Notes: generated by a model not told the origin, from the letters alone. A DNA stretch of 64,000 bases from Rhodospirillales bacterium (GCA_947460455.1 CANHKG010000002.1:2004-66003); one strand, 5' to 3'; shown: positions 23,058-41,340, numbered from the stretch's first letter. Numbers and translations are program-made.

Positions 23058-23385
23058 TTGCCTCGTCCGCGTCAAATTGAGGAGCTGCAATTACAAAACG
23101 ATGAATTCCCAGAATCGTCGTTTTGGACCGTTGTTACGATTTGTTGTGCGTTGCGAGGCAACGATGGGGGCCCAGTGTTCTCTGCGCGGTATGGCGCGGA
23201 TGTCTGAACATCATGACAGGGAACAGAAATAAGTATAATTACTTAGGTATTTACTGTGTGATTGGCAATTCTGCCGCAAATTTCGCCATTGATTAAGCTC
23301 TTTGTCGAATTCTTCGCCCAGAGCAACGCCTCCCGGTCCCACCGACAGCCCGCCGGACCCGTCTCCGGCCCCGCCCGCCCATCGG

Positions 23386-25224
23386 ATGCGAGGAACCTTC
23401 AAGGTTATGACGATGCGAAACCTGACTGCAGCGCTTCGGAACCAGCCCCCGGCAGAACATGATTATGACTGGGCCCCCATCCAGATGCCGGGCACCATCC
23501 AGCCCTATGGCGCTCTGATCGTGGCGGATCCGCAGACGCGGCGGGTTCAGTTCGTCAGCGACAATGCCGGTGAGATGCTGGGCATCAAGGCGGCCGACCT
23601 GCTGGACAAGAGCTATCTCCAGCTGTGTGGCTCTGACCGGGAGCGGCGCTTCGTCAGCGACGCCATCATGCCGGACACGATCCTGTTCCCCAACCCGGTG
23701 CGGCTTACCATCAACGGCAAGCCTTTCGATGCGGTGTTCCACGCCGAGGGCGGCGCCCATCTGATCCAGCTGGAACCGGCCGATCCGGACGCGCTTTCCT
23801 ATGACGAGATGTCGCTGCGCGCGACCGCCGAGCTGTTCGATCCGCCGACCGTGGAGGAGCTGAACCAGCGCGCCGTGCGGATGATCCGCGAGGTGACGGG
23901 CTTTGACCGCGTGATGCTCTATCGGTTCGACAGCCGCTACAATGGCCAGGTGATCGCCGAAGCCGGACGGCCCGATATCGGGTCTTTTCTTGGGCTGTTC
24001 TTTCCTTCCAGCGACATCGGGGCGCGTGCGCGCAATCTGTATTTGGAGAATTTCACCCGATACATCCCGGATATCGGCGCTGCACCGGTCTCCCTGAGCG
24101 GGATCTATCCCGGTGGCGGCCATGCCGACTCCGCCCACCCCGTGGACATGTCCCACGCCAATCTGCGCAGCGTGGTGCCCTGCCATGTGACCTATCTGCG
24201 TAATATCGGTGTTCAGGCCTCGATGTCGTTCAGCATCAACGTGGACAACCGGCTCTGGGGATTGTTCGCCTGCCACCACTATGAGCCGAAGACGGTCTCC
24301 TTCGAGAAGCGGGTGGTCTGCGAGCAAGCGGCGATGATGTTCATCTTCCGGCTGGCGACCATGACCTCGACCGCCGCCCGCTATGCGCGGCGCCAGGAGG
24401 GCCTGGCCCGCCTGACCACCAGCATTACCGTTGGCGCCGCCTTGCGCCGCCGCCTGGCCGGGCTGGCGCAGGGCTGGGCGGGCGATCCGGCCGCGGACAC
24501 GGCAGAGGCGCTGATCGCCCGGGCCATCGAGGCGGTTGAGGCGGAGACCAGCCTGCTGCTGCCCACCGACCCCTCGCAGCTGCCGGCAAATGCGCCGGTG
24601 ACCGGCAACCAGAAGATCCTGCTGGACCTGGTGGAGGCCGATAGTGCCGCCATCGTGCATCACGGGCGTGTTACCCGCATCGGCGAAGCGCCGTCGGCGA
24701 TGGCGATCTATGCCGTTGCCTCGATGTTCGGGCGCGAGTTGCCGGACCTGCAGAACGCTGCGCCGCATGTCTACGCGACCGACGGGCTGAGCGCCGTTGT
24801 GGCGGCCGCCGACGACATCAAGGATCGCGCGGCCGGGATCATGGCGGCGGCGCTGTCGCTGGAATCGCCAAGCTACATCATCTGGTTCCGGCGCGAGCAG
24901 ATCGTCCATGCGACCTGGGCCGGCAACCCCGCCGCCGATGCCATGTCGGCCGGCAGTGAGGGGCTGAATCCCCGCGCCTCGTTCGAGGCCTGGAAGCAGG
25001 ACATCCGCAACCTTTCCCGCCCGTGGGAGATGGAGGATGTGGTGGTGGCGGACGAACTCGCCGCGGTGCTGCGCAGCGTGGCGGCGCCGGATGGTGCGGC
25101 GCGGCCGGCGAAGCCGGAGCTGCAGCGCCCCATCGTGCCCCCGGCACCGCCGCGGCCCGCCGCCCCGCCGCCGGCGGCGCCGGCGGGCTCCGATCGCAAG
25201 GTCATCCGGATCGGCCATCGCTGA
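23386..25224 (+). CDS. Phytochrome photosensory core (PAS-GAF-PHY) with GAF-domain Cys, no output domain, Pro/Ala-rich tail (Phy1)
   Basis: ..APIQMPGTIQPYGALIV.., ..FPSSDIGARARNLY.., ..LRSVVPCHVTYLRNIGVQASMSFSI..LWGLFACHHY.., PHY tongue ..ATWAGNP.. and ..PRASFEAWK.. The start is uncertain (ATG 23386, 23407 or 23413, or TTG 23302). Confidence 0.85.
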   Translation: MRGTFKVMTMRNLTAALRNQPPAEHDYDWAPIQMPGTIQPYGALIVADPQTRRVQFVSDNAGEMLGIKAADLLDKSYLQLCGSDRERRFVSDAIMPDTILFPNPVRLTINGKPFDAVFHAEGGAHLIQLEPADPDALSYDEMSLRATAELFDPPTVEELNQRAVRMIREVTGFDRVMLYRFDSRYNGQVIAEAGRPDIGSFLGLFFPSSDIGARARNLYLENFTRYIPDIGAAPVSLSGIYPGGGHADSAHPVDMSHANLRSVVPCHVTYLRNIGVQASMSFSINVDNRLWGLFACHHYEPKTVSFEKRVVCEQAAMMFIFRLATMTSTAARYARRQEGLARLTTSITVGAALRRRLAGLAQGWAGDPAADTAEALIARAIEAVEAETSLLLPTDPSQLPANAPVTGNQKILLDLVEADSAAIVHHGRVTRIGEAPSAMAIYAVASMFGRELPDLQNAAPHVYATDGLSAVVAAADDIKDRAAGIMAAALSLESPSYIIWFRREQIVHATWAGNPAADAMSAGSEGLNPRASFEAWKQDIRNLSRPWEMEDVVVADELAAVLRSVAAPDGAARPAKPELQRPIVPPAPPRPAAPPPAAPAGSDRKVIRIGHR

Positions 25225-25290: not shown

Positions 25291-25602
25291 ATGAGCGATT
25301 TTGAAGTCAGCCTCACCGCCACCGATCTCGCGTCGATCCTGGCCACCAAGGGCACCCTGGACAGCAAGGTTGGCCAGGTTTTCAAGAGCAAGAGCGACAA
25401 GGCTCTGGAAATGGAGCCGAAGAACATCAACGTGGACTTCCAGAAGCTGGCGGTTCTGGATGCTTCGGCGGCCGGCATGCTGATGTTCTTCAACTACGCT
25501 GCCAAGACCAAGGGCAAGCAGATCAGCATCACCAATGCCAGCCCGGCGGTCCAGCAGGTGCTCAACCGCGCCAATCTCGGCAAGCTCCTGACGATCCGAT
25601 GA
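25291..25602 (+). CDS. Single-domain STAS protein (anti-sigma-factor-antagonist-like)
   Basis: 103 aa. ..NINVDFQKLAVLDASAAGMLMFFNYAAKTKGKQISITNASPAVQQVLNRANLGKLLTI.. matches the STAS/SpoIIAA C-terminal pattern. AGGAA RBS 6 nt upstream. Confidence 0.7.
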   Translation: MSDFEVSLTATDLASILATKGTLDSKVGQVFKSKSDKALEMEPKNINVDFQKLAVLDASAAGMLMFFNYAAKTKGKQISITNASPAVQQVLNRANLGKLLTIR

Positions 25603-25645: not shown

Positions 25646-26284
25646 ATGGCCCCCCTGATGTCTGAACATCACTCCCGCGTGACCCATTTGCGCACCCATA
25701 CGCGCGCCGCGCACAAGAGCATCGAGACCGTTCCCGCACTGGCCCGGCTGTTGGCGCCGGATCTGGGCCGCGGCGAATACGCCGATGTTCTGCTGGCGAT
25801 GCAGGCCTTCCACGCCGCGGCCGAGCCCGATATCGCCCTGGCGCTGGAGGGGTTGCCGGCTGCCCAATCCCTGCTCGACGGTCGCCGCCTCCGGGCCCTG
25901 TCGGACGACCTTGCCTTTCTCGGCACGGCACCGTGGCCGGCGAGCCCGGCACCCCTCGCCTTGGCGAACCGGGCGGAGGCGATTGGCGCACTCTACGTGA
26001 TCGAGGGGGCCAGCCTCGGCGGGCGGGTGATTGCCCGGCACATTGCCGACAGCCTGGACCTGGCGCCAGGCGCGGGGGCGAGCTTCTACGGTGGATTGTC
26101 GGCCGATGCGGCCCGCGAGCGCTGGGGCCGGCTCAGCGCCGTGCTGGAGGACCCGGCGATCGAGATCGATCTGCACGACCTCGCCCACGGCGCCTGCAAG
26201 ACCTTTGAAAGCCTGGAGCGGTGGATGCGGCGCGTGGCCGTCGCCGAAGCGCCGCACACCCTGGCCGTTTCAGCGGCCGCTTGA
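25646..26284 (+). CDS. Heme oxygenase (biliverdin-producing, BphO/HmuO-like)
   Basis: ..LRTHTRAAHKSIE.. (proximal His region), ..DDLAFLG.., ..GALYVIEGASLGGRVIAR.. ATG 25658 is an alternative start. Confidence 0.8.
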   Translation: MAPLMSEHHSRVTHLRTHTRAAHKSIETVPALARLLAPDLGRGEYADVLLAMQAFHAAAEPDIALALEGLPAAQSLLDGRRLRALSDDLAFLGTAPWPASPAPLALANRAEAIGALYVIEGASLGGRVIARHIADSLDLAPGAGASFYGGLSADAARERWGRLSAVLEDPAIEIDLHDLAHGACKTFESLERWMRRVAVAEAPHTLAVSAAA

Positions 26285-26316: not shown

Positions 26317-27840
26317 ATGCTCGATAAGATGGTCGCTGGCCTGGAAAATCCCTACGCGAACCTGCGCGCGCCGGGCCAGGTCCAAAGCTTCGGTGCCATG
26401 CTGGCACTGCATCCGACGACGCTGCGCGTGCTCAACGCCAGCCAGAATGTCGCGGCGGAACTTGGTGTTGGCCATGCGGACATTCTCGGCAAGCCGTTGT
26501 TCGACCTGCTGGAAGGCGGCGAGGCGATCGCCGAGATCAAGGACGCGCTGCAGCAGGACCAGCCGGTGTTCAACAACCCGATCCTGGCCTCGATCGGTGG
26601 GCAGCGCTTCGATCTGTCGCTGCATTGCCATGACGGGCTGGTGATTGCGGAGTTCGAACGCCTGGCCCCCGGCGCGGCCACGCGGGCCGACATGGACCGG
26701 CTGAGCGACGACGCCATCATGGGGATGATGGTTCCCGGCACCGAGGAGGAGCTGCTCGCCGCCGGCCCCGAGGCCATTCGCAGGGCGACCGGCTTCGATC
26801 GGGTGCTGCTCTATCGCTTCGACGAGGCGTTCCGCGGCCAGGTGGTGGGCGAGGCGCGCCGCACGGGCGTGGAGAGCTTCATGGGGCTGTTCTTTCCCGA
26901 AAGCGACATCGGCGCCCCCGCCCGTGATCTCTACACGCAGAACTTCTCCCGCTACATTCCGCATATCGGCGCGCCCACGGCCAAGATCGAACCGGCCGAC
27001 AACCCGCTGACCAACAAGCCCATCGATCTCTCGCATTCCGTGCTGCGGGCGGTGGCGCCCTGCCACGTCGCCTATCTCGCGAACATGGGCGTGACCGCTT
27101 CGATGTCGTTCTCGATCGTGTCGGAAGGCCGGCTGTGGGGGTTGTTCGCCTGCCATCACTACAGCCCGAGCAATCTCTCCTTCACGCAACGGATGATCTG
27201 CGAGCAGATCGCGATGATGTTCGTGGCCAAGCTGCAGGAAGTGGTCAATCCGCTGGCGCTGGAGGAGGAGATGGAGCAGCGGCGCACGAAGCTGCTTGCC
27301 TCCTCGCCGCTGTTCCGGGGCAATCCGCTGAAGCAGAGCTGGAGCGAGGAGAACGAGCAGGACCTCGTCAGGCTCGTCAATGCCGGTGGCGTTGCCCTCT
27401 ACATCGATGGCCAGGTCGGTGAGATCGGCACCTGCCCGGACCTGAGCGACCTGCACGACTTCATCGAGCATTCGCCGCGGGACTTCGATGCGCTGCTGCG
27501 CCGCTACGACGAGCAGGGGCTGTTCTACACGAGCAGCATCGCCTCCGTCCTGCCGTTCGGCGCGAAGATGCGCGAGCAGGGCAGCGGCGTGATGATCGTT
27601 CCGCTGTCTGCCGAACGGCGCGAGTTCCTGTTGTGGTTCCGCCCCGAACTCGTGGTGACTGCCACCTGGGCCGGCAATCCGTCTGAGACCAAGATCAAGG
27701 ACCTGAACGCCACGTTCAGCCCGCGCCGGTCGTTCGCCGCCTGGAAGGAAGACATCCGCGATCTCTCCGCCCCCTGGACCGCGGCCGAGATCGCCAATGC
27801 CAAGGCCGTTCGCGACCACGTGATGGCCCTGATCAACTGA
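26317..27840 (+). CDS. Phytochrome photosensory core (PAS-GAF-PHY) with GAF-domain Cys, no output domain (Phy2)
   Basis: ..APGQVQSFGAMLAL.., ..FPESDIGAPARDLY.., ..LRAVAPCHVAYLANMGVTASMSFSI..LWGLFACHHY.., ..ATWAGNP.., ..PRRSFAAWK.. Ends 25 aa after the last PHY motif. Confidence 0.85.
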   Translation: MLDKMVAGLENPYANLRAPGQVQSFGAMLALHPTTLRVLNASQNVAAELGVGHADILGKPLFDLLEGGEAIAEIKDALQQDQPVFNNPILASIGGQRFDLSLHCHDGLVIAEFERLAPGAATRADMDRLSDDAIMGMMVPGTEEELLAAGPEAIRRATGFDRVLLYRFDEAFRGQVVGEARRTGVESFMGLFFPESDIGAPARDLYTQNFSRYIPHIGAPTAKIEPADNPLTNKPIDLSHSVLRAVAPCHVAYLANMGVTASMSFSIVSEGRLWGLFACHHYSPSNLSFTQRMICEQIAMMFVAKLQEVVNPLALEEEMEQRRTKLLASSPLFRGNPLKQSWSEENEQDLVRLVNAGGVALYIDGQVGEIGTCPDLSDLHDFIEHSPRDFDALLRRYDEQGLFYTSSIASVLPFGAKMREQGSGVMIVPLSAERREFLLWFRPELVVTATWAGNPSETKIKDLNATFSPRRSFAAWKEDIRDLSAPWTAAEIANAKAVRDHVMALIN

Positions 27841-27900: not shown

Positions 27901-28233
27901 ATGAAAATTCGCAATCTCAAGACGGCTTCCGAAACCGGTGACACCACGGTCCAGGCCAGCGTCGCGGAACCGTCACCCGCGATGGCCGACCAGCAGGTGG
28001 TTGCCACCGTGATCGCGGATGGCCCCGTGGACGACGCTGCGCATGACCGCCAGGCGCTTGAGATCGCCCTGCTGCGCGTGCGGGTGCAGCACCTGGAGCT
28101 GGTGGTTGAGACCGCGCGCAGCCTGCTCAACGCCAACCAGGACCGGCTGCTGCGGCGGCTGCACGAGATTCCCCGGGAGATGGCGTCGCTGAGCGCGCAG
28201 CTTCAGCGGGTTGATCCCCAGGCCAGCTGGTGA
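27901..28233 (+). CDS. Small hypothetical coiled-coil protein
   Basis: 110 aa. The C-terminal half is heptad-like (..LEIALLRVRVQHLELVVETARSLLNANQDRLLRRLHEI..). Sits in the operon between Phy2 and paralog A. The start is uncertain (TTG 27877 is possible). Confidence 0.45.
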   Translation: MKIRNLKTASETGDTTVQASVAEPSPAMADQQVVATVIADGPVDDAAHDRQALEIALLRVRVQHLELVVETARSLLNANQDRLLRRLHEIPREMASLSAQLQRVDPQASW

Positions 28234-28274: not shown

Positions 28275-28814
28275 ATGAACGCATATCCCGGCCCGGCCGA
28301 CGCGCTCGCCGCCAGCGGCGACACCACCTCCTCCGCCGGCGACGAAAGCGCGACCTGCTTCAAGCTGAGGCGCACCGGCCACAAGGCCGTTCGTTTCGAC
28401 GGCTGGCAGCTCGTGGAGGCCTTCGGTGGCGGCCAGGGGAAGGATGTGTGGCACGACCTCAACCTGTATCGCACCGGGCAGGACCGGATCGTGGTTGAGC
28501 TCATCGCCCGGACCACCCTGCCGGACCAGCAGGATCTGCACCGCGTCAACACGTTCGAGACACTGACCGATGCGGCGGCCTGGCTGGAGGCGTATCGTGC
28601 GACTGACGATGCGCCGATCCCGGCCTCCCTCAGCCAGGCCAATACCGCCTTGCCCTGGGCGATGCTGCAGGCCGTTCATCTGCGCCACAACATCGATCGC
28701 ATCGATGCCGATTACCGGACGATGCTGAGTGAGGTGTTCATGGCGCTCGACCTCTCCGACCCGGCCGAGGCGGCCTTGTATACGGCAGCCGCTGCCTCGC
28801 CGCGGGAAGGGTGA
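28275..28814 (+). CDS. Unknown-family protein, paralog A of a four-member family in this window
   Basis: ATG 28275 follows GGGAGGA. ..CFKLRRTGHKAVRFDGWQLVE..DVWHDLNLYRTGQDRIVVELI..FETLTDAAAWLEAY..YRTMLSEVF.. aligns with the ORFs at 30790-32335. Confidence 0.7.
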   Translation: MNAYPGPADALAASGDTTSSAGDESATCFKLRRTGHKAVRFDGWQLVEAFGGGQGKDVWHDLNLYRTGQDRIVVELIARTTLPDQQDLHRVNTFETLTDAAAWLEAYRATDDAPIPASLSQANTALPWAMLQAVHLRHNIDRIDADYRTMLSEVFMALDLSDPAEAALYTAAAASPREG

Positions 28815-28821
28815 TCCCCTG

Positions 28822-29511
28822 ATGAATGCCCTGCCGATGATGCAACGCGCCGCGGTGCAGTTTGCCGATCGCCTGCGGCTGGTGCCGGGTGCGATCGAGC
28901 GCCACGTTCCGGACTACGCGCCTTCGACGGAGACGCTGCAGTGGACGAATGTCTTGCTGGAATCAGGCAGGTTTCGTCATGGCCATGTCGAGACGTTCGT
29001 TGTGGCGGACAGGCTTTCCGTGCTGCATGTGTGCCTGTTCCCGCATCTTGACGATCCCGGCCCGATCTTCGGTTTCGACATGATCGCGGGCCCGGCCAGG
29101 GTGACCGGCATCTTCCTCGACCTGTCGCCGACCACGGGGCAGGCGGACGGCCCGGGCCTGGGTGAGGTTCGCGCGGCGCAGGGCGTTGGAGCGTTCGAGC
29201 ATCCTCGCGTGCTGCCGGAGTGGGGCGATATCTTCTCAGCCGATTGCCTGGCGATCCGTCCGGCTGATCTGGATGAGGTCGCGCGAGCCATCGGGTTTGC
29301 GCAGGCCGCGCTGGATGCCTGCCTGGCCGGGACGCGCGTACGCGCCCCCCACCGCAGCGCCGAGATCAGCGCTGGCCAGGCGCGCTACATCGCAGCGCAG
29401 CGGCGCAACGAACACACCTTCCGGATGCTGGCTGGATTGATCGGACCCGACAAGGCCCGCGGCTTCATTGATCAGGTGCTGTTCCCGGCTGTTCCTGAAC
29501 TGGCGATCTGA
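28822..29511 (+). CDS. pcyA: Ferredoxin-dependent bilin reductase, PcyA-like
   Basis: ..GRFRHGHVETF..LSVLHVCLFP..PIFGFDMIAGP..GIFLDLSPT.. aligns by eye with the PcyA core (..FRKLHLEIA..ILHCVMFP..PLFGCDIVAGP..DLSPT..), including the Glu/His/Asp positions. Confidence 0.75.
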   Translation: MNALPMMQRAAVQFADRLRLVPGAIERHVPDYAPSTETLQWTNVLLESGRFRHGHVETFVVADRLSVLHVCLFPHLDDPGPIFGFDMIAGPARVTGIFLDLSPTTGQADGPGLGEVRAAQGVGAFEHPRVLPEWGDIFSADCLAIRPADLDEVARAIGFAQAALDACLAGTRVRAPHRSAEISAGQARYIAAQRRNEHTFRMLAGLIGPDKARGFIDQVLFPAVPELAI

Positions 29512-29518
29512 TATCGGC

Positions 29519-29551
29519 CCGCGTTGACCATAGGGATGGGTCGACGCGGGC
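29519..29551. terminator. Stem-loop between convergent pcyA-like and HhH genes
   Basis: cccgcgttgacc / ggtcgacgcggg form a 12-bp stem with one G-U position and a 9-nt loop, followed by a T-containing tract on the + strand. Confidence 0.5.
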
Positions 29552-29583
29552 TGGTATGATTTGGCGTTCTGCTCGGGCCCGAC

Positions 29584-30225
29584 TCAGCGGTCCTCGTCGG
29601 CTCCGGCTGCCAGCCTGCGCTTCGCGCTGCCGATCCACGCCTCCACGTCCACCAGGCGGCTGATGTCGCCGAGTGCGGCGCGCAGCTCGCCGAGATCTGA
29701 ATGTGCGAGTTGGCGTGTGGTCCTGACACCGATCTGGCTCATTCGGATCAGCATGCCGGGACCGAAGCCGATTTCAGCGAGCGGGGGATCGAATTCGGGG
29801 CTGTCAGGCATGGCCGGGGTTGCAGGTGCATCTGCTTCGGCGGTGGGTTCATCCTGGCTGGCTGCGACGGGCGCAGCGCCGGGATCGTCCTCTGCTGGCG
29901 GGCCTGCCGGCACCGGCGCTTCATCGATGGCAGCGGCTGCTTCGGGCGCCGTTTCCTCCGCCATGATGTGGGAATAGCTGGCAAAAACCGAACCGGACTG
30001 GAGCGGCTGTGCGGCGGCGGGATGGCGTTCTTCGGGCGGCAATGCCGGTTCGGGGGCGGCCGCCGGCGGCTCCGGCTTGGCGGCACCTTCCCGTTCGAGG
30101 CGGCGCGCCTCGTGCGACTCTCGCAGGCTGCTGCGCAAGATCGGCCGCTGGCGGAGACGCTCCTGGCGATAGGCTGCGATCATCATCATGCCTTTGGAGG
30201 CCGGCGGATCTGACCGAGAGCTCAT
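29584..30225 (-). CDS. Hypothetical protein with acidic/Pro-rich centre and C-terminal helix-hairpin-helix-like domain
   Basis: 213 aa. The C-terminus ..LAEIGFGPGMLIRMSQIGVRTTRQLAHSDLGELRAALGDISRLVDVEAWIGSAK.. resembles the HhH/DUF4332-like module common in alphaproteobacteria. Lies downstream of gvpA. Confidence 0.55.
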   Translation of the reverse strand: MSSRSDPPASKGMMMIAAYRQERLRQRPILRSSLRESHEARRLEREGAAKPEPPAAAPEPALPPEERHPAAAQPLQSGSVFASYSHIMAEETAPEAAAAIDEAPVPAGPPAEDDPGAAPVAASQDEPTAEADAPATPAMPDSPEFDPPLAEIGFGPGMLIRMSQIGVRTTRQLAHSDLGELRAALGDISRLVDVEAWIGSAKRRLAAGADEDR

Positions 30226-30285
30226 GTTCTATCCTGTGGGATGTGCGCGCGCCGCGGCATTGGGGGGGCGACCCTCAAGGGGAGG

Positions 30286-30335
30286 GGATCATGCGCTGCC
30301 CGGCACCGCGAGCAGTGCTGGGCGACGCATGATCC
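30286..30335 (-). terminator. Strong compound stem-loop 8 nt downstream of the gvpA stop
   Basis: Outer stem ggatcatgcg/cgcatgatcc (10 bp) encloses inner stem gcccggcac/gtgctgggc (9 bp with one G-U) and an 8-nt loop. Confidence 0.55.
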
Positions 30336-30342
30336 ACGCAAC

Positions 30343-30561
30343 CTAGGCTGCTGCCGCCACCGGATCGGTCGTGAGGCCGACGGCTTCGGCATAGCGCAGA
30401 TAGGTCTCCACCGATGCCACGACGACGCGGATCTCGATGGCAATCAGCTCGATGCCGACCAGCGCGATGCGGATGAACGCATCAACCACCACACCCTTAT
30501 CCAGGATGCGATCGATGACTTCGGCCAGGCTGCTCGAAGCAAGGCTTTTATTGATCGTCAT
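30343..30561 (-). CDS. gvpA: Gas vesicle major structural protein GvpA
   Basis: [63 protein letters not shown] is a near-canonical GvpA sequence. Start ATG 30561 lies 7 nt after GAAGGGA (an ATG at 30567 is too close to the RBS). Confidence 0.92.
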
Positions 30562-30703
30562 AGCCATTCCCTTCAATAAAATCGTCAACCCTCGAACGGG
30601 CAAACTGTGCAATTCGAGCGCCACTGGCCGAACTTCACCCCATCAACATAGGAATTTTGGATAAACTGACTATGACCGCTTATTATTATTTATATTCAGA
30701 CTT

Positions 30704-30724
30704 TGGAATATGTTATTCTGGAAT
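30704..30724. promoter_or_regulatory. Direct repeat TGGAAT-N9-TGGAAT in the AT-rich gvpA upstream region
   Basis: tggaatatgttattctggaat sits within the visibly AT-rich 30640-30725 tract, about 145-160 nt upstream of the gvpA start. Confidence 0.3.
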
Positions 30725-30789
30725 GCGCAGTTTGCGCAGCCTAGGCGGGTTCAGCAGAACAGCCGCACCGGCTTGGCCATGTGCGGCAG

Positions 30790-31356
30790 CTACGCCAGCC
30801 TGGGGTGTGGTGGGTTGGCGCGATGCACGGCTGCGCGGGCGCTGGCCAGGGCGATCTGGTACAGCAAGGCACCGGCCAGGGCGCGATACCTGGCTTCGAC
30901 AGTGCCGGAGAACATGGCGAGGATGTGGCTGTACCTGGAGTGCGCAAGCCAATCGAAACCCGATGGCTGCTCCGCAAACGCGGCACTCAACACGCTCGGG
31001 CAGATATCCGCGGTTGGGTCGTGGCCTTCGATGGCACCGAGTGCGTCATCCAGGGCTTCGAATGCAAGGGCGTGGCATCGAACGCGGCGTGCCAGCCCGG
31101 CGCGGTCCTTCGACCACGCGACGATCTCCACGACAAACAGGCCCTCGACGGTCTGGTACAGGCCGAGCTCGTGCCAGAAGCAGGCCGGCGCCACAACGAT
31201 GGATGGCGCTCCGAGCTGGGCCTGCAGCAGCCAGCCGACGAAACGCAGCGGTGATTCACCATGCCGCCGCAACCGGAAAGGCCGCCGCAGGTCTGCATGC
31301 GCGCCTGGCAGGTGCGGCTGCAGATGTGTGGGCGCATCTTGGAGGGCGCCCGTCAT
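30790..31356 (-). CDS. Unknown-family protein, paralog B
   Basis: ..PFRLRRHGESPLRFVGWLLQA..CFWHELGLYQTVEGLFVVEIV..FEALDDALGAIEGH..ARYRALAGALL.. The start overlaps the paralog C stop (ATGA at 31353-31356). Confidence 0.65.
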   Translation of the reverse strand: MTGALQDAPTHLQPHLPGAHADLRRPFRLRRHGESPLRFVGWLLQAQLGAPSIVVAPACFWHELGLYQTVEGLFVVEIVAWSKDRAGLARRVRCHALAFEALDDALGAIEGHDPTADICPSVLSAAFAEQPSGFDWLAHSRYSHILAMFSGTVEARYRALAGALLYQIALASARAAVHRANPPHPRLA

Positions 31357-31859
31357 CGCGGTTCGTTGCCAAAGAGGGCACGCACCATGCCGAACCAGGC
31401 GCCGCGGAACAGTCCGGCCAGCGCGATATCTTCGCCGGCCTGGCGGCAGCTTTCGCCTGGCACGACAAGATCCGCGCAGGGGAGGACCAAGGCGATCATC
31501 GGGTCGTGGGCCTGGATCGCCCGCGGGAGTGCAGGCGCGTTCGCGTGCAGCGCGGAGTCTCGCCAGACGCCACCGAGGCTCTCCGTCAGGTGATGCGTCA
31601 GCGTGGAGGCGAGGCCACTGGTGCGGGTTTCGAACAGCGTGAGCTCGGACCATGCGGGCAGGCCGACGCAGCGATTGCTGACATGCAGCAGGGCGCGCCC
31701 GCAGATGTGGAGCGGCCGCAGCCCGTGGCGCGGCAGGATGACCGGGTGGAAGTGGTGGTCCGCGCTCTCGATGGCCGGTGAGGCCCGATCGGGAGCGGCC
31801 GGCTCATGCGCGCAGAACGGATTGGCCGCAATCGGTGCCATCGCGCTGCGCCGGGTCAT
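31353..31859 (-). CDS. Unknown-family protein, paralog C (most divergent)
   Basis: ..PVILPRHGLRPLHICGRALLH..PAWSELTLFETRTSGLASTLT.. ATG 31859 overlaps the paralog D stop by 1 nt (TGATG). Confidence 0.6.
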   Translation of the reverse strand: MTRRSAMAPIAANPFCAHEPAAPDRASPAIESADHHFHPVILPRHGLRPLHICGRALLHVSNRCVGLPAWSELTLFETRTSGLASTLTHHLTESLGGVWRDSALHANAPALPRAIQAHDPMIALVLPCADLVVPGESCRQAGEDIALAGLFRGAWFGMVRALFGNEPR

Positions 31860-32335
31860 CAGCCAATGTCGAACTGGAACAGCAGTTCGCCGATCATCGA
31901 TCGGTACTGCATCTCGACCCAATCGGCACGCTGGCGCAGTGATGCCGCGCGCAGCGCGATCTCGGTGGCGCTGATGCGCCGGTCTGACGCGTCGAGGTCG
32001 GCAAAGAGATCGGCTGCCGGATCGAAGGCCTGCAGCCAGGCCAGGGCCTTCTCCAGCGAGTCGAACCGATGGGCGTGGAAGACGTCGCTTTCGCACTGGT
32101 TGTCCCGGCAGGTTCGCAGGGCCACGGCAACCTGCCCGTCGTCGCACCGGAAGATCTGCAGGTCCTGCCAGGCCGGTGCGGCCGGCGTTCGGCTCGTGCA
32201 TTCGGCCAGCAATTCCCCACGGACGCGCAGCGGCTTTCCGCCGGACTGGCGCAGCAGGTACCCGCCCTCGCTGATGGCGGGGGCGGTCGATGGCGACGAC
32301 GGGATGCCGGTTTCAAGGCTGAGCATCGCGGACAT
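31859..32335 (-). CDS. Unknown-family protein, paralog D
   Basis: ..GYLLRQSGGKPLRVRGELLAE..PAWQDLQIFRCDDGQVAVALR..FDSLEKALAWLQAF..QYRSMIGELL.. ATG 32335 follows CTGGAG. Confidence 0.65.
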   Translation of the reverse strand: MSAMLSLETGIPSSPSTAPAISEGGYLLRQSGGKPLRVRGELLAECTSRTPAAPAWQDLQIFRCDDGQVAVALRTCRDNQCESDVFHAHRFDSLEKALAWLQAFDPAADLFADLDASDRRISATEIALRAASLRQRADWVEMQYRSMIGELLFQFDIG

Positions 32336-32406: not shown

Positions 32407-34956
32407 CTACGCGGCCTGGCTGCGACCGGGCGGGCAATTCCCCGCATCGCTGGCGATCGCCACCGCGGTTGCGACGGATTGCAGCTGGCGGATGACCCTG
32501 TCGACGGCGCTCAGAATCTCCGGCGCGCGGCCGGTGATCCAATCCTCGCCCAGGCCGGTCCGGCCGGAGACGGCAGCCTCGGCAAGGGCCGCGCTGGAAT
32601 GCATGAGGACGGCCGCCTCCACCCCAACACCGGCGAGCTTCGCGACCGGATCGGTTGTGGGCACGGGGCGTGCCGGCGCATGGGCGGCCTCGGCGCAGGC
32701 CTTCGCACTCTCCATCATCTGATCGGCGACGAGCTGCACCTTGTCGATCGTGCCGGTGAGGATTGTGCCCGACTGTTCGACGGCGGAACAGGTCTGCGCG
32801 ACGCGGCCGAGGCCGTGCGAAAGCTCGCCTGTTGTGGCGGCCATGTCGCTTTGCAGCCGCGCAAGGACGGTGACCTGTTCGGCGAGGTTTTCGCGCCATT
32901 CAGTCGCAGCATCCACTTCGGCATCCGTAAGCTGCTCGGCGGAGGCGTGGAGCGCCGCCAGGCTGCCTTCGATCCGCGCGCAGGTGCCGGCCAACTCATG
33001 CAGCAGTGCTTCCGTGAGTGCCGGCGCGGCCGGCGCCTGGATGTCGTGCACGAGGCTTTCGAAGCGGTGCAGCATCGGCGGGACGCTGCCGATCATGCCG
33101 GCAATCTCCCGCAGCCTTTCGTTCGCCTCGGCGCGGAATTCGCCGGCGAGAGTGTCCAGGCGTTGGCCTGTGGACAGCCCGGCTTCGGAGAACAGGCTGA
33201 CGCGCTGTTGCACAGTGGCCAGCACCCGGTCGATCTCCTGCGCCCGGGCGCTCAGCACTTCCGCATCGCCGCGCAGGCTCGCGCCGGCCTCGGCCAGCGT
33301 TCCCGACACGAAACCAGCGTGATCGCGCAGGCTTGTCACGGCCTCCGCGCCAACCTGTGCGAGCTGGTCGCCGGCATCCTGCAGGGTCGCCTGCATATCG
33401 TCGGTGCGATGGCGCAGCGCGTCCAGCAGCGCGCCCAGCGACGCGTTGCCGGTGGTGTAGGCGGTGTCGATCGTGCCGCCCAGATGGGCGATGGAGGCCG
33501 CAAGCTCGCCGCCCGCACCGGACATCTCGGCGACTTTCTGGTCGATGCGATCTACCTCGCCACGAATTCGGCCGGCGGACGCGGAGGCGCTGGCGATCAT
33601 CTGTGCCGTTGCGGCACAGAGCTGCTGCGCTTCGTCATTCAAGGCCCGCACGCCGGCGTCGGCGGCGGTGTTCAGGGTGGGGATGGCGGCGAGCAAGGCC
33701 TCCGTTGCGTGCACGATGTCGCTGCCCACCGCCTCGCCGGCGGCAAGGCAGGCGCCGGCGGCCTCTCGCGCACGGCCGCTTTCCGCCTCTACCGCGCGGG
33801 CCGCGGCTTCGATCTGCTCGACGCCGGCGAACAACGCCTGGCTTGCGGCCGTGCCCGCATGCGTGGCCGTGGCGATCTCTGCGGCGGCCGCCTCCAGCGC
33901 CTGCGCGCCGGTGCCGAGCTCGACGACAAGCGCCGGAAGGGCCTCGGCATGGGCCAGCAATCCGGCGGAGGCGGATGCCATCATTTCGGCATGATCGCGC
34001 CCGGCCTGGGTGAGGTCGTTCACCCGCATCTGGAGATCTGTGCTGCCGTTGATGACCGCGTCGCGCATTTCGGCGTGCACCTGCGTGCTCTGCTGCAGGG
34101 CCAGGGCAGCGTCGTCGAGGGTCTGCAGGGCGCGGTCGGCCTGGGTTGTGATGGCGGCAGCAAGTTCCGGCAGGGTGGCCACGCCGGTCTCCACGCGACC
34201 CACAGCCTCGTGGGCGCGGGCAACCACGCCGGCACCCGCCGCGGCGATCTCTCGGCAGGCCTGATCCAGGGAGGCCGCGTCCCGTTCCATGCGGCCCGAG
34301 GCGTCGCCCATGGCGGCGATCCGCACAACGATGCCGGAGGTCGCGCGCTCCAGCGCGTGGGCCGCCGCGTCGGCTGCCGCCGTCAAGGTTTGCAATGGCA
34401 GGGACATCGCGGCGCCGGCCTCTTGCGGATAGGACGGCTCGATGCCGCGGGCTGCGAGGTCGCTTGCGATCCGCTCCAACCGATCTGCGATCGTGACGGC
34501 GCCTTCGAGTGTGGTCACCGTGTCGCGCAGGCACAGTTCCGCGTGTTCGGTGCTCTCGGACAGGCGTTTCTCCGCATCCATCGCGAAGCCTGCCAGGTTG
34601 GCGCCCACCACCATGGACTCCCGCGCCGCGGCATTGCCGGCGTCGCGCAGGTCGCTCCATTGCCGGCGCTCATCGTGCATCAGGGCACGCATATCCTCGA
34701 TCGCCGCGCGCAAGTCGGCGTGTTCGGGCGTGTGTGCGTGCGCGGCGTTGGATCCCGCACGTGCGGCTGTCGCCTGCGATCGCAGCACGATCACGGCGGC
34801 GGCGCAGCCGAGCGCGGCCGAGAGGAACGGCAGCAGCGTCCAGCCATGGGTGCCGATATCAGCCAGCAGCTGCGGCCCCCGCGCGGCGATGCCGGCCAGA
34901 CCGGCCAGGACTGCGAGGGCGAGGCACAGCCAGCCAAGCTTGTTCTGCCATTCCAT
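32407..34956 (-). CDS. Large (849 aa) Ala-rich, predicted all-helical protein with two N-terminal TM segments; unknown function
   Basis: N-terminus LGWLCLALAVLAGLAGIA / WTLLPFLSAALGCAAAVIVL, then about 750 aa of A/E/L/Q/T-rich helix-type sequence. Starts 12 nt after the gvpK stop. No MCP tip motif and no 33-aa GvpC repeat. Confidence 0.75.
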   Translation of the reverse strand: MEWQNKLGWLCLALAVLAGLAGIAARGPQLLADIGTHGWTLLPFLSAALGCAAAVIVLRSQATAARAGSNAAHAHTPEHADLRAAIEDMRALMHDERRQWSDLRDAGNAAARESMVVGANLAGFAMDAEKRLSESTEHAELCLRDTVTTLEGAVTIADRLERIASDLAARGIEPSYPQEAGAAMSLPLQTLTAAADAAAHALERATSGIVVRIAAMGDASGRMERDAASLDQACREIAAAGAGVVARAHEAVGRVETGVATLPELAAAITTQADRALQTLDDAALALQQSTQVHAEMRDAVINGSTDLQMRVNDLTQAGRDHAEMMASASAGLLAHAEALPALVVELGTGAQALEAAAAEIATATHAGTAASQALFAGVEQIEAAARAVEAESGRAREAAGACLAAGEAVGSDIVHATEALLAAIPTLNTAADAGVRALNDEAQQLCAATAQMIASASASAGRIRGEVDRIDQKVAEMSGAGGELAASIAHLGGTIDTAYTTGNASLGALLDALRHRTDDMQATLQDAGDQLAQVGAEAVTSLRDHAGFVSGTLAEAGASLRGDAEVLSARAQEIDRVLATVQQRVSLFSEAGLSTGQRLDTLAGEFRAEANERLREIAGMIGSVPPMLHRFESLVHDIQAPAAPALTEALLHELAGTCARIEGSLAALHASAEQLTDAEVDAATEWRENLAEQVTVLARLQSDMAATTGELSHGLGRVAQTCSAVEQSGTILTGTIDKVQLVADQMMESAKACAEAAHAPARPVPTTDPVAKLAGVGVEAAVLMHSSAALAEAAVSGRTGLGEDWITGRAPEILSAVDRVIRQLQSVATAVAIASDAGNCPPGRSQAA

Positions 34957-34968
34957 CGTGCCGCTCCG

Positions 34969-35277
34969 CTACATCAGCCGGCCCAAGGGTCCGAGATCCA
35001 GATTGAGGCTGTCTGGTGGGACGCCGAGCTTTTCGCACAGCGACACCACCGCATCGCGCGATCGCAGCAGGGTCAGGCCCAGCCGCTCGGCCTCCTCCGG
35101 CGTGATCGTCTCGGCCTCCATCCGGCGGACGGCCTGTGCCTCCATGAGGCGGCGGAGGAACTCGACCAGGGTCAGCACGAGCCGGGCCAGATCCTGCTCG
35201 ACCCGGTCGGGATCGATGCTGATGCGGCCCAGCACCGGGGGGGACGACGACGACGCATCAAGGTCCAGGACGCTCAT
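34969..35277 (-). CDS. gvpK: Gas vesicle protein GvpK
   Basis: ..RISIDPDRVEQDLARLVLTLVEFLRRLMEAQAVRRME..ITPEEAERLGLTLL..LNLDLGPLG.. is the GvpK signature. ATGA overlap with the upstream gene. Confidence 0.88.
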   Translation of the reverse strand: MSVLDLDASSSSPPVLGRISIDPDRVEQDLARLVLTLVEFLRRLMEAQAVRRMEAETITPEEAERLGLTLLRSRDAVVSLCEKLGVPPDSLNLDLGPLGRLM

Positions 35278-35489
35278 GCCTGCGGCCCTGCGCTGGGCAG
35301 CAGCGTCATGCGCGAGGCGGTGTCGACCGAGGCGAGCAACGCGCGCACGCCGAGATAGACCAGGTCCACGCCGGCGACGGTCAGCACGATCTGCCCATCG
35401 GCGACGACGCCGGTATCCAACAGGCGGTCCAGCACATCGACCAGCGTGGCCGGTTGGGCGCCGTCGGTGAGGGGGATGCGGTCAGACAT
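35274..35489 (-). CDS. gvpS: GvpA/J/M/S-family small gas vesicle protein (GvpS-like)
   Basis: 71 aa. ..ATLVDVLDRLLDTGVVADGQIVLTVAGVDLVYLGVRALLASVDTA.. is the GvpA-fold core. Confidence 0.8.
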   Translation of the reverse strand: MSDRIPLTDGAQPATLVDVLDRLLDTGVVADGQIVLTVAGVDLVYLGVRALLASVDTASRMTLLPSAGPQA

Positions 35490-36288
35490 GGGCGGCCTCC
35501 GCCTGCAGCGCCGCCCGGGCGAAGGCATAGGCGGGCCAGGGGCCGGTCAGCCGCACGGCAAGCCCGGACGGTGCCAGTTCCTCGGTGAGGGCGGCGAGCC
35601 ATGCCTGGACGAGGGGCGAGGCGCCGGCATCGGTGGGGGCGAGCACGCTCCAGCAGGGCGATCCATCCCGCTGGCGCTCGACCAGCACCGGCCAGCCAGC
35701 CGCCTGCAGCAGCGCGGTGATGCGCGCCTCCACGCTCGCCAGATGCTCGACGCGCGCGGCGACTTGCGCCTTGTCGATCCGTTTCGCCATCAGGAAGGCG
35801 GTGCCGGCGCCGGCATTCTCGGCCTGGCGGGTGAGGCGTTGCAGTTCGGCGTCGTGATGGGCAAGCCAGGCGGCGTGGCGGGCCGGGTCGGCGCAGATGG
35901 AGAGGCACCACTCCGCATGACCTGCCATGCGTGCGATCCCGTCGCGCATGGCGGCGGCGCGCGGTCGCAGCCACCCTGACAGCCGGTCGAGGCTCGAAAA
36001 CAGGGTTCCGAAACCGAGTGGCAGGCAGGCCTGCCGCGACGCGGCCGCGGCGACCACGGCGTGATGCGCGGCGGCGCGTTCCGCCATCCAGTCGGGATCG
36101 TCGGTGCGGTTGCCGTCCTGCCCGTCCTCGAACAGCGCGCGGGGCACCAGGGTGGCCAGGACATCGACCGTCCCGAAGGAAATCGCGTCCACCGTGGTGC
36201 CCGGAAGCAGGCCTGGAACATCCGGCGCCGGCTGGCCCGGGGCGATGACGGCATAGACATACCAGGCGCGGTCGGTGTGCGCGGTCAT
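35482..36288 (-). CDS. gvpL: GvpL/GvpF-family gas vesicle assembly protein
   Basis: ..AWYVYAVI.. start, ..HHAVVAAAASRQACLPLGFGTLF.., ..LTGPWPAYAF.. ATGA overlap with the upstream gene. Confidence 0.85.
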   Translation of the reverse strand: MTAHTDRAWYVYAVIAPGQPAPDVPGLLPGTTVDAISFGTVDVLATLVPRALFEDGQDGNRTDDPDWMAERAAAHHAVVAAAASRQACLPLGFGTLFSSLDRLSGWLRPRAAAMRDGIARMAGHAEWCLSICADPARHAAWLAHHDAELQRLTRQAENAGAGTAFLMAKRIDKAQVAARVEHLASVEARITALLQAAGWPVLVERQRDGSPCWSVLAPTDAGASPLVQAWLAALTEELAPSGLAVRLTGPWPAYAFARAALQAEAAHV

Positions 36289-37316
36289 GCCGCATGCTCC
36301 ACAACCTGCCCCGCCACCGGCGCCAACTCGGGCAGAACAAGGCGGTAGCCGGCCTGCCGCACCAGGCTGCGCAAGGTCCTCGGCGCGGCCCGCAGCAGCG
36401 GGCGGAGCAGGCGATAGGCCTCGGTGATCTCGGTGAAGGCCTCGGTGGACGCCGGCTGGCCGGGGCGACGGTCTGGATGGGCGGACGCGGCGAGGGCCCG
36501 CCACTGGCGATGCAGCAGGGTGATATCCACCTTCTCCGGCAGGCCGAGCACGCGCCAGCTTCGGGCGATGTCCCCAGCCTCAACGCGGGTGAGCCGGACC
36601 GGGTGAAAGCTGACCGGCGGCATCGGCCCGCGCAGATCGGCACTGGCCCCCGCCACCTGGGCCGGCGGCAACTGGCCGAGCGCGGCCTCGATCAGGTTCT
36701 CCCGGCCGCGGGGGACCAGAACGGTGGTGGTGATCTCGGTCTCCCCGCCCGCAGTGGACCCTGGCGCGATGGCCAGGACATGGCGGCTGAGCGCCTGCAG
36801 CACGACGGCCGAGCGGGCGGCGTGCTCGGCGCGCAGCAGCGCCTGGACGGCCTGCGCCAACAGGGCCGGATCACCCTTCGCGGCGGCTTCCTGCAGGGTC
36901 TCGCGCTGCGTCGCCAGCACCGCCTCGGGCGGCCAGCTGATCACCAGATCCCATTGATGCACGGCCCCGAGCTGGGCGAGCCTGGCGCCCAGATCCTCCC
37001 AGGACAGCTCCAGCAGCGCGTCGATCGCGCTGGTTGGGCAGCAGGCAGCGCCTGGGTCCATCGGCAGGAACGGTCCGAACTGGCAGGCAATCTCCAGCCG
37101 GCGGTGCACCGCCTGCAGCCCGCTGAGCAGGGCCTTGCGGCCGCGGCGGGCAAGGGGCGTCGTCGGCTCATCCTGGATCAGGGCAGCGACCGTCGGGCCG
37201 TACACCGCGCGCAGCGACGGACCCGGCACGGCGGACATCGCCGCGCACAGGCCTTCGATATCCGCGAGGCCGGCAAAGCCCAACAGCCGCGTCGGTGCCA
37301 TGTTCACATCCGCCAT
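36285..37316 (-). CDS. GvpL/GvpF-like protein fused to a C-terminal J-domain
   Basis: The N-terminal 270 aa are GvpF/L-like (..HRRLEIACQFGPFLPM.., ..LRGPMPPVSF). The C-terminus ..WRVLGLPEKVDITLLHRQWRALAASAHPDRRPGQPASTEAFTEITEAYRLL.. matches a J-domain including HPD. AGGAGG RBS. Confidence 0.8.
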   Translation of the reverse strand: MADVNMAPTRLLGFAGLADIEGLCAAMSAVPGPSLRAVYGPTVAALIQDEPTTPLARRGRKALLSGLQAVHRRLEIACQFGPFLPMDPGAACCPTSAIDALLELSWEDLGARLAQLGAVHQWDLVISWPPEAVLATQRETLQEAAAKGDPALLAQAVQALLRAEHAARSAVVLQALSRHVLAIAPGSTAGGETEITTTVLVPRGRENLIEAALGQLPPAQVAGASADLRGPMPPVSFHPVRLTRVEAGDIARSWRVLGLPEKVDITLLHRQWRALAASAHPDRRPGQPASTEAFTEITEAYRLLRPLLRAAPRTLRSLVRQAGYRLVLPELAPVAGQVVEHAA

Positions 37317-39400: not shown

Positions 39401-39665
39401 CCGCCGGCTCCTCGGCTGCCGTGCCGGCCTGGATGGCGCGCATTTCCATGAGCTCCTCCAGCAAGCGGGATTCCTCGGCCTCGAACGCCTCCTCGGTGAT
39501 CTCACCGTTGTCGAGCTGGCGTTCCAGCAGCCGCAGCGCCTGCTCGATGCGGGCGGGATCCAGCATCTTCTGCAGTGCCTGCTCGGCCACCTGGCGGGCG
39601 ATCCATTGCAGCGCGCCCAGCGGGCCGGCCACGGGCAAGGCGATGAGGGAGCCGAGGATGCTCAT
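39390..39665 (-). CDS. gvpG: Gas vesicle protein GvpG
   Basis: 91 aa. ..PVAGPLGALQWIARQVAEQA.. then ..LERQLDNGEITEEAFEAEESRLLEEL.. is typical GvpG. ATGA overlap with gvpF. Confidence 0.85.
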   Translation of the reverse strand: MSILGSLIALPVAGPLGALQWIARQVAEQALQKMLDPARIEQALRLLERQLDNGEITEEAFEAEESRLLEELMEMRAIQAGTAAEEPADAA

Positions 39666-40435
39666 GCCTGCGCCGCCCCCATCTGCCAATCGGCGCGCAG
39701 CTGGACGAAGTTGTAGGGCGGCACCGGGCCGACATAGCGGAACACCATGCGGCCTTCCCGGCTCTCTGACAGGCTGCGCATCCGCGCGTCGAACTGCGGT
39801 TCGTTCGCGCGGGACACCAGGAAGGCGCGGTTGAGCACCATGTCGTCGTCCAGCGTCTTGAGCTCGGCTTCGCGGTCGGCCAGGGGAGCGAGCTCGGCCA
39901 GGATCGCCTCGGCATCGGCGGTGCGGCGCTTGGCCAGCGCCTGCTCGATCTGGCGACCGAGCTCCACCCGCTCGTAGTAGGTTTCGCTGGCCGGGCGGTC
40001 GCGCAGGCGATTGCGCAGCCGGGCCAGATTGGCGTCGGAGGCGATGATCTCCGCGAACACCACGCCTTCGCGCCAGCTTGCCTTCACGCCAAGTTCCACC
40101 TTGCCGTCGATCGCGGCCATCGCCGCGGTGAAGGCGGCCTGGTTGGTGGTGATGCAGGCATTCAGCGCCGCCTCGCCAGGCGCCACCGTGCCGAAGCGGA
40201 CGGGCAGCACCGTCGCCTGCGTCATCACGCGCTCCAGCAGGGCGGTGTGCGCCAGCAGGTTGCGGCGGGTCTGCGCGACCTCGCCCGGCTCGACGGCGCT
40301 GACCAGCGCCTGCAGGGCACCTTCGCCGCGCAGGGTCACGGCCGCACCGCCGACGCCGGTGCCCCAGGCGGTGGGGTCGAGACGCTGGCCGGCGGCGACG
40401 AGGCCATAGACGTAGAAGCGTTCCGGGGTGGTCAT
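39662..40435 (-). CDS. gvpF: Gas vesicle assembly protein GvpF
   Basis: ..RFYVYGLV.., ..NLLAHTALLERVMTQATVLPVRFGTV.., ..MVLNRAFLV.., ..YVGPVPPYNF.. ATGA overlap with the Hsp20 gene. Confidence 0.88.
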   Translation of the reverse strand: MTTPERFYVYGLVAAGQRLDPTAWGTGVGGAAVTLRGEGALQALVSAVEPGEVAQTRRNLLAHTALLERVMTQATVLPVRFGTVAPGEAALNACITTNQAAFTAAMAAIDGKVELGVKASWREGVVFAEIIASDANLARLRNRLRDRPASETYYERVELGRQIEQALAKRRTADAEAILAELAPLADREAELKTLDDDMVLNRAFLVSRANEPQFDARMRSLSESREGRMVFRYVGPVPPYNFVQLRADWQMGAAQA

Positions 40436-41028: not shown

Positions 41029-41037
41029 GCCGACCTC

Positions 41038-41340
41038 CTATTGCCGCGCCGTGGCGGCGATGGTGTGCTCGAGCTTGGCGATCCGTTCGAGCAGGGCGGC
41101 ATTGTCGGCCTGCAGCTTGGCGGAGCCGGCGCCGTTCAAGGCGGCATCGTTCTCCCACCAGCGGATGCCCATTTCGAGGGCGCGATCGACCGAGGCCACC
41201 ACCAGGCGGATGCGCACGGTGAGCAGTTCGACGCCCACCAGGCTCACCGAAATGTCGCCCGCGACGACGATCCCCTTGTCGAGGATGCGCTCCAGGATAT
41301 CCGCCAGGCCGGAGCCGCCGACGCTGTGTTGCAAGGCCAT
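41038..41340 (-). CDS. gvpJ: Gas vesicle protein GvpJ (GvpA family)
   Basis: ..GLADILERILDKGIVVAGDISVSLVGVELLTVRIRLVVASVDRALEMG.. plus a C-terminal extension. Confidence 0.88.
   Translation of the reverse strand: MALQHSVGGSGLADILERILDKGIVVAGDISVSLVGVELLTVRIRLVVASVDRALEMGIRWWENDAALNGAGSAKLQADNAALLERIAKLEHTIAATARQ

Follow-up and report, generated by a model that had tools for sequence, protein, structure and literature searches.

A family of small paralogous proteins encoded beside photoreceptor and gas-vesicle genes in alphaproteobacteria, and its candidate role between light sensing and buoyancy

How might a bacterium whose phytochromes carry no output domain pass information about light to its gas vesicles? 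The question is raised by a 64,000-nucleotide (nt) stretch of DNA from a Rhodospirillales bacterium (GCA_947460455.1 CANHKG010000002.1:2004-66003; the whole stretch is referred to below as the window), in which a minus-strand gas-vesicle (gvp) operon converges with a plus-strand photosensory operon and four small open reading frames, A to D, are divided between the two. Judged from gene context, from which its biochemical role is also read, the step that is missing between light sensing and buoyancy has its best candidate in the family to which these four belong. Specifically, we propose that its members are hetero-oligomeric output partners of stand-alone photoreceptors, controlling the production or assembly of GvpA in alphaproteobacterial gas-vesicle clusters, a proposal to which we would give an even chance of being right.

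Four paralogous genes and the family behind them

The four genes are placed in the window as follows:
28275..28814, plus strand: paralog A (A-type), 179 amino acids (aa), isoelectric point (pI) 4.8; in the photosensory operon, with a GGGAGGA Shine-Dalgarno sequence upstream.
30790..31356, minus strand: paralog B, 188 aa, pI 7.9; the final gene ahead of the gvpA upstream region.
31353..31859, minus strand: paralog C, 168 aa; C-terminal half divergent.
31859..32335, minus strand: paralog D, 158 aa, pI 4.9; no other type is as well conserved or as widely distributed; it heads the coupled trio.

Each of them starts with ATG and is free of internal stops, and their lengths are identical in the public gene calls for the identical contig. 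The GC content at third codon positions is 0.77-0.84 in the coding frame, and the neighbouring genes are alike in this respect. Compared with orthologues in two related assemblies (L006/L007), the ratio of non-synonymous to synonymous substitution rates (dN/dS) lies at 0.05-0.22 for D and at 0.30-0.41 for C, and B has a value of 0.40. By these sequence features A to D are genuine protein genes under constraint, that is, under purifying selection. A preliminary description of the locus had given their coordinates exactly; the frames are intact and all the motifs quoted there are found. It had also taken B, C and D to be translationally coupled, and both overlaps were verified: the start codon of B overlaps the stop of C (ATGA, in cgcgATGAcg) and that of C overlaps the stop of D (TGATG, in ggcTGATGacc).

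The same description regarded the four as paralogs, a view that is borne out by blastp for most pairs and by an independent profile for C. Pairwise blastp E-values are 2.7e-14 for A and B, 6e-11 for A and D, 5e-8 for B and D, 3.7e-6 for C and D, and 1e-3 for B and C, the pair A and C alone giving no significant similarity. To place C without circularity, we based a hidden Markov model (HMM) on sequences of types A, B and D and left out all those of type C; C scores 38.9 bits against it (E 2.6e-14), with the match mainly in its N-terminal half, the C-terminal half having diverged. Given these E-values and the score against the C-free model, the similarity among the four is far beyond chance. 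PcyA, GvpK, STAS, orf110, orf150 and orf213, all encoded nearby, score about 0 bits on the same model and are ruled out as hidden members.

None of the four matches Pfam-A or NCBIfam at E ≤ 1, and 139 diverse relatives gave no match in Pfam. This covers the named Gvp accessory families for which Pfam or NCBIfam holds a model (Gas_vesicle, i.e. GvpA/J/M/S, GvpF/L, GvpG, GvpH, GvpK, GvpO and others); the neighbouring gvp genes, by contrast, match their own Gvp models strongly. The family profile returned only noise from PDB sequences (E ≥ 0.28), megablast and tblastn searches of PLSDB plasmids returned nothing, and a word-indexed homologue search with the 139 diverse members as queries returned 23 proteins, none of them named. 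All public records of members carry the label 'hypothetical protein', and a Gvp name is given to none of them in the sources consulted. When 1.84 billion cluster representatives were searched exhaustively with HMMER, the family came to no fewer than 1,243 clusters, defined by 50% identity, at E ≤ 1e-3 and to 275 at E ≤ 1e-10; the D-type is the commonest and best-conserved type within it. On this sequence evidence the family is large, uncurated and without a name, its members measuring about 160 aa. The 'four-member' family of the preliminary description is therefore correct as a count of the paralogs present here and far too small as a description of the family as a whole. Its statement that the proteins fit no known family agrees with the lack of a Pfam, NCBIfam or PDB sequence match, and with the lack of a significant Foldseek match for two AlphaFold models (see below). 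We found no mention of the family itself in the literature, and it appears to be undescribed; since the linkage of photoreceptor and gvp genes is already published, the novelty lies in the family only.

Photoreceptor and gas-vesicle neighbours in this and other genomes

Paralog A belongs to a plus-strand operon with the order Phy1, STAS, heme oxygenase, Phy2, orf110, A and PcyA-like bilin reductase. The other genes of this operon are:
23302..25224, plus strand: Phy1, PAS_2-GAF-PHY only, with a Cys-His pair in the GAF domain (VVPCHVTYL).
25291..25602, plus strand: STAS-domain protein, 103 aa, between the two phytochromes; about 77-80% identical in the related loci L009 and L011.
25658..26284, plus strand: heme oxygenase, from domain search and gene call.
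26317..27840, plus strand: Phy2, PAS_2-GAF-PHY only, with a Cys-His pair in the GAF domain (VAPCHVAYL).
27901..28233, plus strand: orf110, 110 aa, between Phy2 and A; no domain match; 46-48% identical in L009 and L011.
28822..29511, plus strand: PcyA-like ferredoxin-dependent bilin reductase (Pfam Fe_bilin_red, 8e-26).

Phy1 and Phy2 have neither an output domain nor an N-terminal cysteine. The Cys-His pair in the GAF domain, without an N-terminal cysteine (Cph1-type attachment), is what we take to fit a phycocyanobilin (PCB) chromophore in both, with PcyA encoded adjacently. The position of A between Phy2 and the PcyA-like gene, as first described, holds, with the correction that the conserved orf110 separates Phy2 from A.

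Paralogs D, C and B belong to the minus-strand operon, the order of which after gvpK is the 849-aa protein, D, C, B, a 228-nt AT-rich spacer, gvpA and orf213. Its remaining features are:
34969..43117, minus strand: gvpN, orf150, gvpO, gvpJ, Hsp20/GvpH-like, gvpF, gvpG, CDC48-type double AAA ATPase, GvpF/L-DnaJ, gvpL, gvpS and gvpK, from Pfam matches.
32407..34956, minus strand: Ala-rich acidic protein, 849 aa, between gvpK and D.
30562..30789, minus strand: gvpA upstream region, AT-rich in a genome of 67% GC and containing a 12-nt inverted repeat.
30343..30561, minus strand: gvpA, major shell protein, 72 aa (Pfam Gas_vesicle, 4e-15; gene call in L001).
29584..30225, minus strand: orf213, conserved acidic protein downstream of gvpA; no Pfam domain; homologues follow gvpA in L007 and L009-L012.

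A genome scan with the D-type profile yielded 12 GTDB loci, comprising metagenome-assembled genomes of Acetobacterales/Acetobacteraceae or similar, plus Falsiroseomonas selenitidurans BU-1. The arrangement D-C-B-gvpA is kept in nine of the 12, the other three being two loci that are cut short and one (L016) without gvp genes; a B-type gene precedes gvpA in L007, L009-L015, L017 and L023. The series Phy1, STAS, heme oxygenase, Phy2, orf110 and A recurs in L009 and L011, where it is co-oriented downstream of gvpA. Five further GTDB loci (L012-L014, L016 and L017) and the metagenome contigs L028 (the same contig as L012), L029 and L030 have no phytochrome and carry a gene for photoactive yellow protein (PYP) instead. 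This gene encodes 124 aa, immediately follows the D-type gene and retains the chromophore cysteine ('APC' motif). It stands between the D-type and C-type genes in L012/L028, L013, L014, L017, L029 and L030, the full order in L028-L030 being pCL on the minus strand, then D-type, PYP, C-type, B-type and gvpA. Comparison of the PYP loci with the phytochrome loci therefore indicates that one trio chassis has been wired to two unrelated classes of photoreceptor. In L016 the D-type gene and PYP have a PAS-GGDEF gene as their neighbour and gvp genes are absent for 10 kb in both directions, so the tie to a photoreceptor can exist without gvp genes. In Falsiroseomonas (L015/L031), conversely, the contig carries the trio and gvpA and no photoreceptor, so that a tie to gvpA is possible where no photoreceptor is in sight.

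More distant members, sampled from the exhaustive HMMER search, extend the pattern. L018, L021/22 and L026 each contain gvpK, a large protein, a gene for a PBP-like protein (a second small family, treated below), PYP, two family genes and pCL; a third member lies on the opposite strand in L018 and L021/22, and in L021/22 gvpA follows that member. In L019 a PBP-like gene and PYP are followed by one protein of 350 aa, which consists of two family domains, and then by pCL; in L024/25, PYP, TAL and pCL have three members grouped around them. L033 and L034 each have a member divergent from TAL with gvp genes alongside, and in L023 C-type and B-type genes stand ahead of gvpA. Nearly all loci with enough flanking sequence have their members in a gas-vesicle cluster. 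The preliminary description had seen in the family a physical link between light sensing and vesicle formation; gene context supports such a link, including as it does PYP beside the family in other gvp clusters and PYP inside the trio in sister lineages.

Could these neighbourhoods arise without any signalling role? The family might consist of assembly or structural accessory proteins of the gas vesicle (such as GvpA chaperones, nucleators or shell-binding proteins), the photoreceptors being nearby through island co-inheritance and co-regulation. This is what one might read from D, C and B as the last coupled genes of the gvp operon, after gvpK and the large repetitive protein and before gvpA, from the Falsiroseomonas contig with its trio and gvpA and no photoreceptor, and from the presence of gvp genes in almost all loci with enough flank; an acidic composition unlike that of DNA-binding proteins is also consistent with it. 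Such a purely structural role sits poorly, however, with the D-type gene and PYP of L016, which have no gvp gene in the 10 kb to either side, or with A, which is one of the phytochrome operon's genes, flanked by Phy2/orf110 and PcyA, and not part of the gvp operon. Nor does it account for the insertion of PYP within the trio and the recruitment of the same family by two unrelated photoreceptor classes, and no Gvp family modelled by Pfam or NCBIfam matches A to D. We consider this explanation doubtful, if worth serious attention.

A further explanation would tie the family to the photoreceptors alone, as factors that mature or stabilise cysteine-linked photoreceptors (PYP and PCB-phytochromes), for instance as chaperones of the apoprotein or as helpers in chromophore loading. 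Members do have chromophore-synthesis genes as neighbours: in the window the position is between Phy2 and PcyA, and in other loci it is between PYP and pCL or next to TAL. Chromophore attachment in PYP and phytochromes is autocatalytic or proceeds with pCL alone, however, three to four paralogs per locus would be excessive for a maturation factor, and in L015/L031 the trio stands next to gvpA without a photoreceptor. We regard this role as highly improbable.

Several neighbours deserve a separate word. Divergent from Phy1 in the window is a gene for a protein with an MCP signalling domain and a C-terminal PilZ domain, which binds cyclic di-GMP (c-di-GMP), at 21558-23090 on the minus strand; weak homologues of it adjoin the PYP/family modules in L012/L028 and L016. 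A PAS-GGDEF gene accompanies the D-type gene and PYP in L016, and a PAS/MCP gene stands at the end of L034. Through neighbours of these kinds, input by c-di-GMP or of a chemotaxis type may reach the same circuit. In the gvp operon, the CDC48-type double AAA ATPase (37304-39505, minus strand) and the GvpF/L-DnaJ fusion (36285-37316, minus strand) are kept in all related clusters examined (L009-L011, L013, L018, L026 and L034). The 849-aa protein has no Pfam domain and, by eye, a hydrophobic N-terminus; counterparts of 276-735 aa occupy the same position in L015/L031, L018, L022 and L026, and it may serve as a GvpC-like scaffold. Within orf213, the C-terminal 50 or so residues resemble, by eye, a helix-hairpin-helix motif, which they may form. 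A single database protein (P0185) joins the C-terminal half of a D-type protein to an orf213-like C-terminus, either as a genuine fusion or as an assembly artefact.

Predicted fold, charge and the gvpA upstream region

An AlphaFold2 model of A, computed from an 85-sequence alignment, reached a predicted local distance difference test score (pLDDT) of 82.6 and a predicted TM-score (pTM) of 0.73. After a disordered N-terminus it has five antiparallel strands (residues 27-33, 36-50, 58-67, 72-80 and 88-94), followed by a helix at 97-106 and two short ones, after which come a helix of 32 residues (126-157) and a last one. The predicted fold is thus an N-terminal five-strand antiparallel sheet, then an acidic helical part that includes one long helix. 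Across 245 members the median net charge is +2 for the sheet domain, which is mildly basic, and -5 for the acidic helical part. Two proteins, P0103 and P0110, are natural fusions of two family domains encoded between PYP and pCL; in the AlphaFold model of the fusion both halves take the same fold, with pLDDT values of about 78 and 97, and the linker is disordered. We do not accept this model as proof of a pseudo-dimer, its pTM being 0.48.

Foldseek searches with the model of A (against PDB and BFVD) and with that of the fusion (against PDB) returned no match at E ≤ 0.001, all E-values being at least 0.037. The sole geometrically tight superposition was on the PUR repeat of Borrelia Pur-alpha, over 62-63 residues with a root-mean-square deviation (rmsd) of 3.3-3.5 Å, at a probability of 0.75-0.92 and a non-significant E-value of 0.087-0.44. 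In the search with the model of A, the best such match had E 0.087, probability 0.90 and a TM-score to the target of 0.52 over 63 columns; a second search gave E 0.14 and probability 0.92. The antiparallel strands and helix of this PUR, or Whirly-like, fold (Borrelia burgdorferi Pur-alpha, PDB 3nm7/3n8b) superpose on the sheet and first helix of the family, and PUR repeats function in pairs, as the tandem fusion suggests for the family. The two differ in that identity is only 6-11%, that Pfam finds no PUR match, and that five strands and a long extra helical part are present in the family. We therefore treat the resemblance as a lead on the fold, and not as evidence of homology. Other structural candidates were discarded: the WGR domain, with no Pfam match (PF05406) and Foldseek E-values of 0.97 and 0.72 to PARP-3 WGR; the coat proteins of single-stranded RNA (ssRNA) phages (leviviruses), which are among the top matches with an rmsd of about 14 Å; and SNX-PX and serpin matches, by rmsd or E-value.

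The DNA between B and gvpA bears on how the family might act. In all related loci a spacer of 150-220 nt precedes gvpA, and in L017 a hairpin resembling a terminator separates gvpA from the B-type gene; together the spacer and the hairpin suggest that gvpA is transcribed on its own. Positions 30562-30789 are likely to hold its own promoter and leader. An inverted repeat GCAAACTGYGCA, with arms at 30600-30611 and 30724-30735 that are 11/12 complementary and 112 nt apart, flanks the AT-rich core; a rough calculation of ours puts the chance expectation for such pairs in 241 nt at about 0.06. It could be an operator pair or a leader structure. A sigma-70 consensus scan found no site on the gvpA strand, and an Rfam scan of 21-44 kb, gvpA leader included, found no riboswitch or known RNA.

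With this region in view, the family might instead be one of nucleic-acid-binding regulators, using a PUR/Whirly-like or phage-coat-like sheet at the gvpA promoter or mRNA leader and receiving light input indirectly, for instance through PBP, STAS or c-di-GMP. The PUR repeat is the only geometrically tight structural match and ssRNA-phage coat proteins are among the top ones, and gvpA always has its own upstream region after the B-type gene, here AT-rich with an inverted repeat. One L021/22 member is transcribed divergently from gvpA, and MCP-PilZ and PAS-GGDEF genes recur nearby. The structural part of the argument is nevertheless met by the non-significance of every Foldseek E-value and by the poor rmsd of the coat proteins, and no Rfam element is present in the gvpA leader. 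The charge of the sheet is only about +2 with whole-protein pI values of 4.8-7.9, and Pfam scans of A to D and the 139 relatives reveal no helix-turn-helix (HTH) or known nucleic-acid-binding motif; the acidic composition and the lack of a DNA-binding motif therefore argue against a classical transcription factor. Some life is left in a nucleic-acid role because of the PUR-like sheet, the separate AT-rich region upstream of gvpA and the divergent member, and overall we judge it distinctly unlikely.

A proposed output pathway and the systems it resembles

We return to our proposal that the family provides output partners of stand-alone photoreceptors. Both phytochromes of the window lack output domains, and members are encoded beside such receptors as well as directly upstream of gvpA; in addition, the binding of light-activated PYP by PBP, a small protein encoded next to it, sets a precedent (bioRxiv 10.1101/2021.06.01.446672). 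The pathway could run as follows. Because of the translational coupling and the natural two-domain fusion, we infer that the paralogs would work as hetero-oligomers. One member, A here and the D-type protein next to PYP elsewhere, would bind the photoreceptor in one light state only, and this binding or release would alter the action of a D/C/B complex at gvpA. That action might be on expression, via the AT-rich upstream region or leader, or on how the GvpA protein is handled while vesicles assemble. Buoyancy would in this way be set by light quality.

Several points weigh against this proposal. In PYP cassettes the direct binder of PYP is likely to be the PBP-like protein, and in the window the STAS protein is a possible alternative partner of the phytochromes. 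The Falsiroseomonas contig, 9.6 kb long, has the trio and gvpA and no photoreceptor. As proteins the members are neutral to acidic and their sequences do not indicate DNA binding; binding of a receptor, of GvpA or of nucleic acid by the family is putative throughout. Finally, the pTM of 0.48 for the fusion model leaves the mutual arrangement of its two domains unfixed. As a separate observation, the position of the STAS protein between the two phytochromes makes it a further candidate partner in its own right.

A bolder version of the proposal would have the family be a class of hetero-oligomeric output modules with a new fold, contacted directly by PYP and by output-less PCB-phytochromes, and gating vesicle formation post-translationally by holding or releasing GvpA, with no part for known signalling chemistry such as phosphorylation, c-di-GMP or DNA binding. 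We think it unlikely that the sequence patterns described here reflect this whole scheme.

The only characterised partner of this kind is the PYP-binding protein PBP (RCAP_rcc01067) of Rhodobacter capsulatus, an acidic, dimeric protein of 142 aa that associates with Rc-PYP after UV activation and dissociates from it under blue light (bioRxiv 10.1101/2021.06.01.446672; Kim et al. 2021). In R. capsulatus and Loktanella, PYP adjoins gas-vesicle genes, as relayed in PMC3646047 from Kyndt 2004. Like the proteins studied here, PBP is small, acidic and encoded beside a stand-alone photoreceptor; since it binds the light-activated receptor only, such cassettes can be said to signal through small binding partners. 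Immediately upstream of PYP in several gvp cassettes (L018, L019, L021/22 and L026) we find a family of acidic proteins of 131-146 aa with 186 database matches, which by length, acidity and gene position is most likely the family of PBP. One of its members, from Rhodoblastus acidophilus, is misnamed 'xanthine dehydrogenase subunit A'. The PBP-like and A-D families co-occur in the same cassettes and are distinct: hhalign gives a probability of 0.15% for their relationship, and the order of secondary structure differs, PBP having N-terminal helices and then strands. With PBP-like proteins taken as a proxy for PBP, the identity of the A-D family with PBP is rejected by inference, a distinct PBP-like family standing on the other side of PYP. 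An HMM of the PBP-like family has no match in the window.

For the phytochrome side, the nearest precedent is BrBphP3 (BRADO1262) of Bradyrhizobium sp. ORS278, a PCB-binding bacteriophytochrome encoded in a horizontally acquired island together with PCB synthesis and gas-vesicle genes (Jaubert et al. 2007 via PMC3899966). With two PAS_2-GAF-PHY proteins, a heme oxygenase and a PcyA-like reductase beside a complete gvp operon, the window is likewise a photoreceptor-plus-gvp island, of the same overall design. The difference lies in the object of study: the account of that work in PMC3899966 concerns the photoreceptor and, as far as it goes, mentions no small paralog family.

Two other comparisons are instructive. 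In Rhodopseudomonas palustris, the output-less phytochrome RpBphP1 transmits its signal to PpsR2, the product of a separate gene, which it binds in a light-dependent manner. PpsR2 is an HTH repressor, whereas the A-D family has no recognisable DNA-binding domain. Regulators that control gvpA expression are also encoded within gas-vesicle clusters, namely GvpD and GvpE of haloarchaea, a P-loop/bZIP-like pair, and GvrA/B/C of Serratia, which are of the two-component/NtrC kind. These families are unrelated to A-D, which match no Pfam or NCBIfam model.

At a minimum, the family merits a curated model and a name. Single-domain PYP has been heavily studied, yet according to the literature its downstream partners and outputs are largely unknown, and the same is true of output-less phytochromes; the members of this family are concrete, small and soluble candidates for binding and deletion tests. 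Gas-vesicle clusters are being engineered as acoustic reporters, and the pathway proposed here, if true, might open a route to light-switchable gas-vesicle expression. Direct contact of PYP with the family, if true, would supply the long-sought physiological output pathway for single-domain PYPs.

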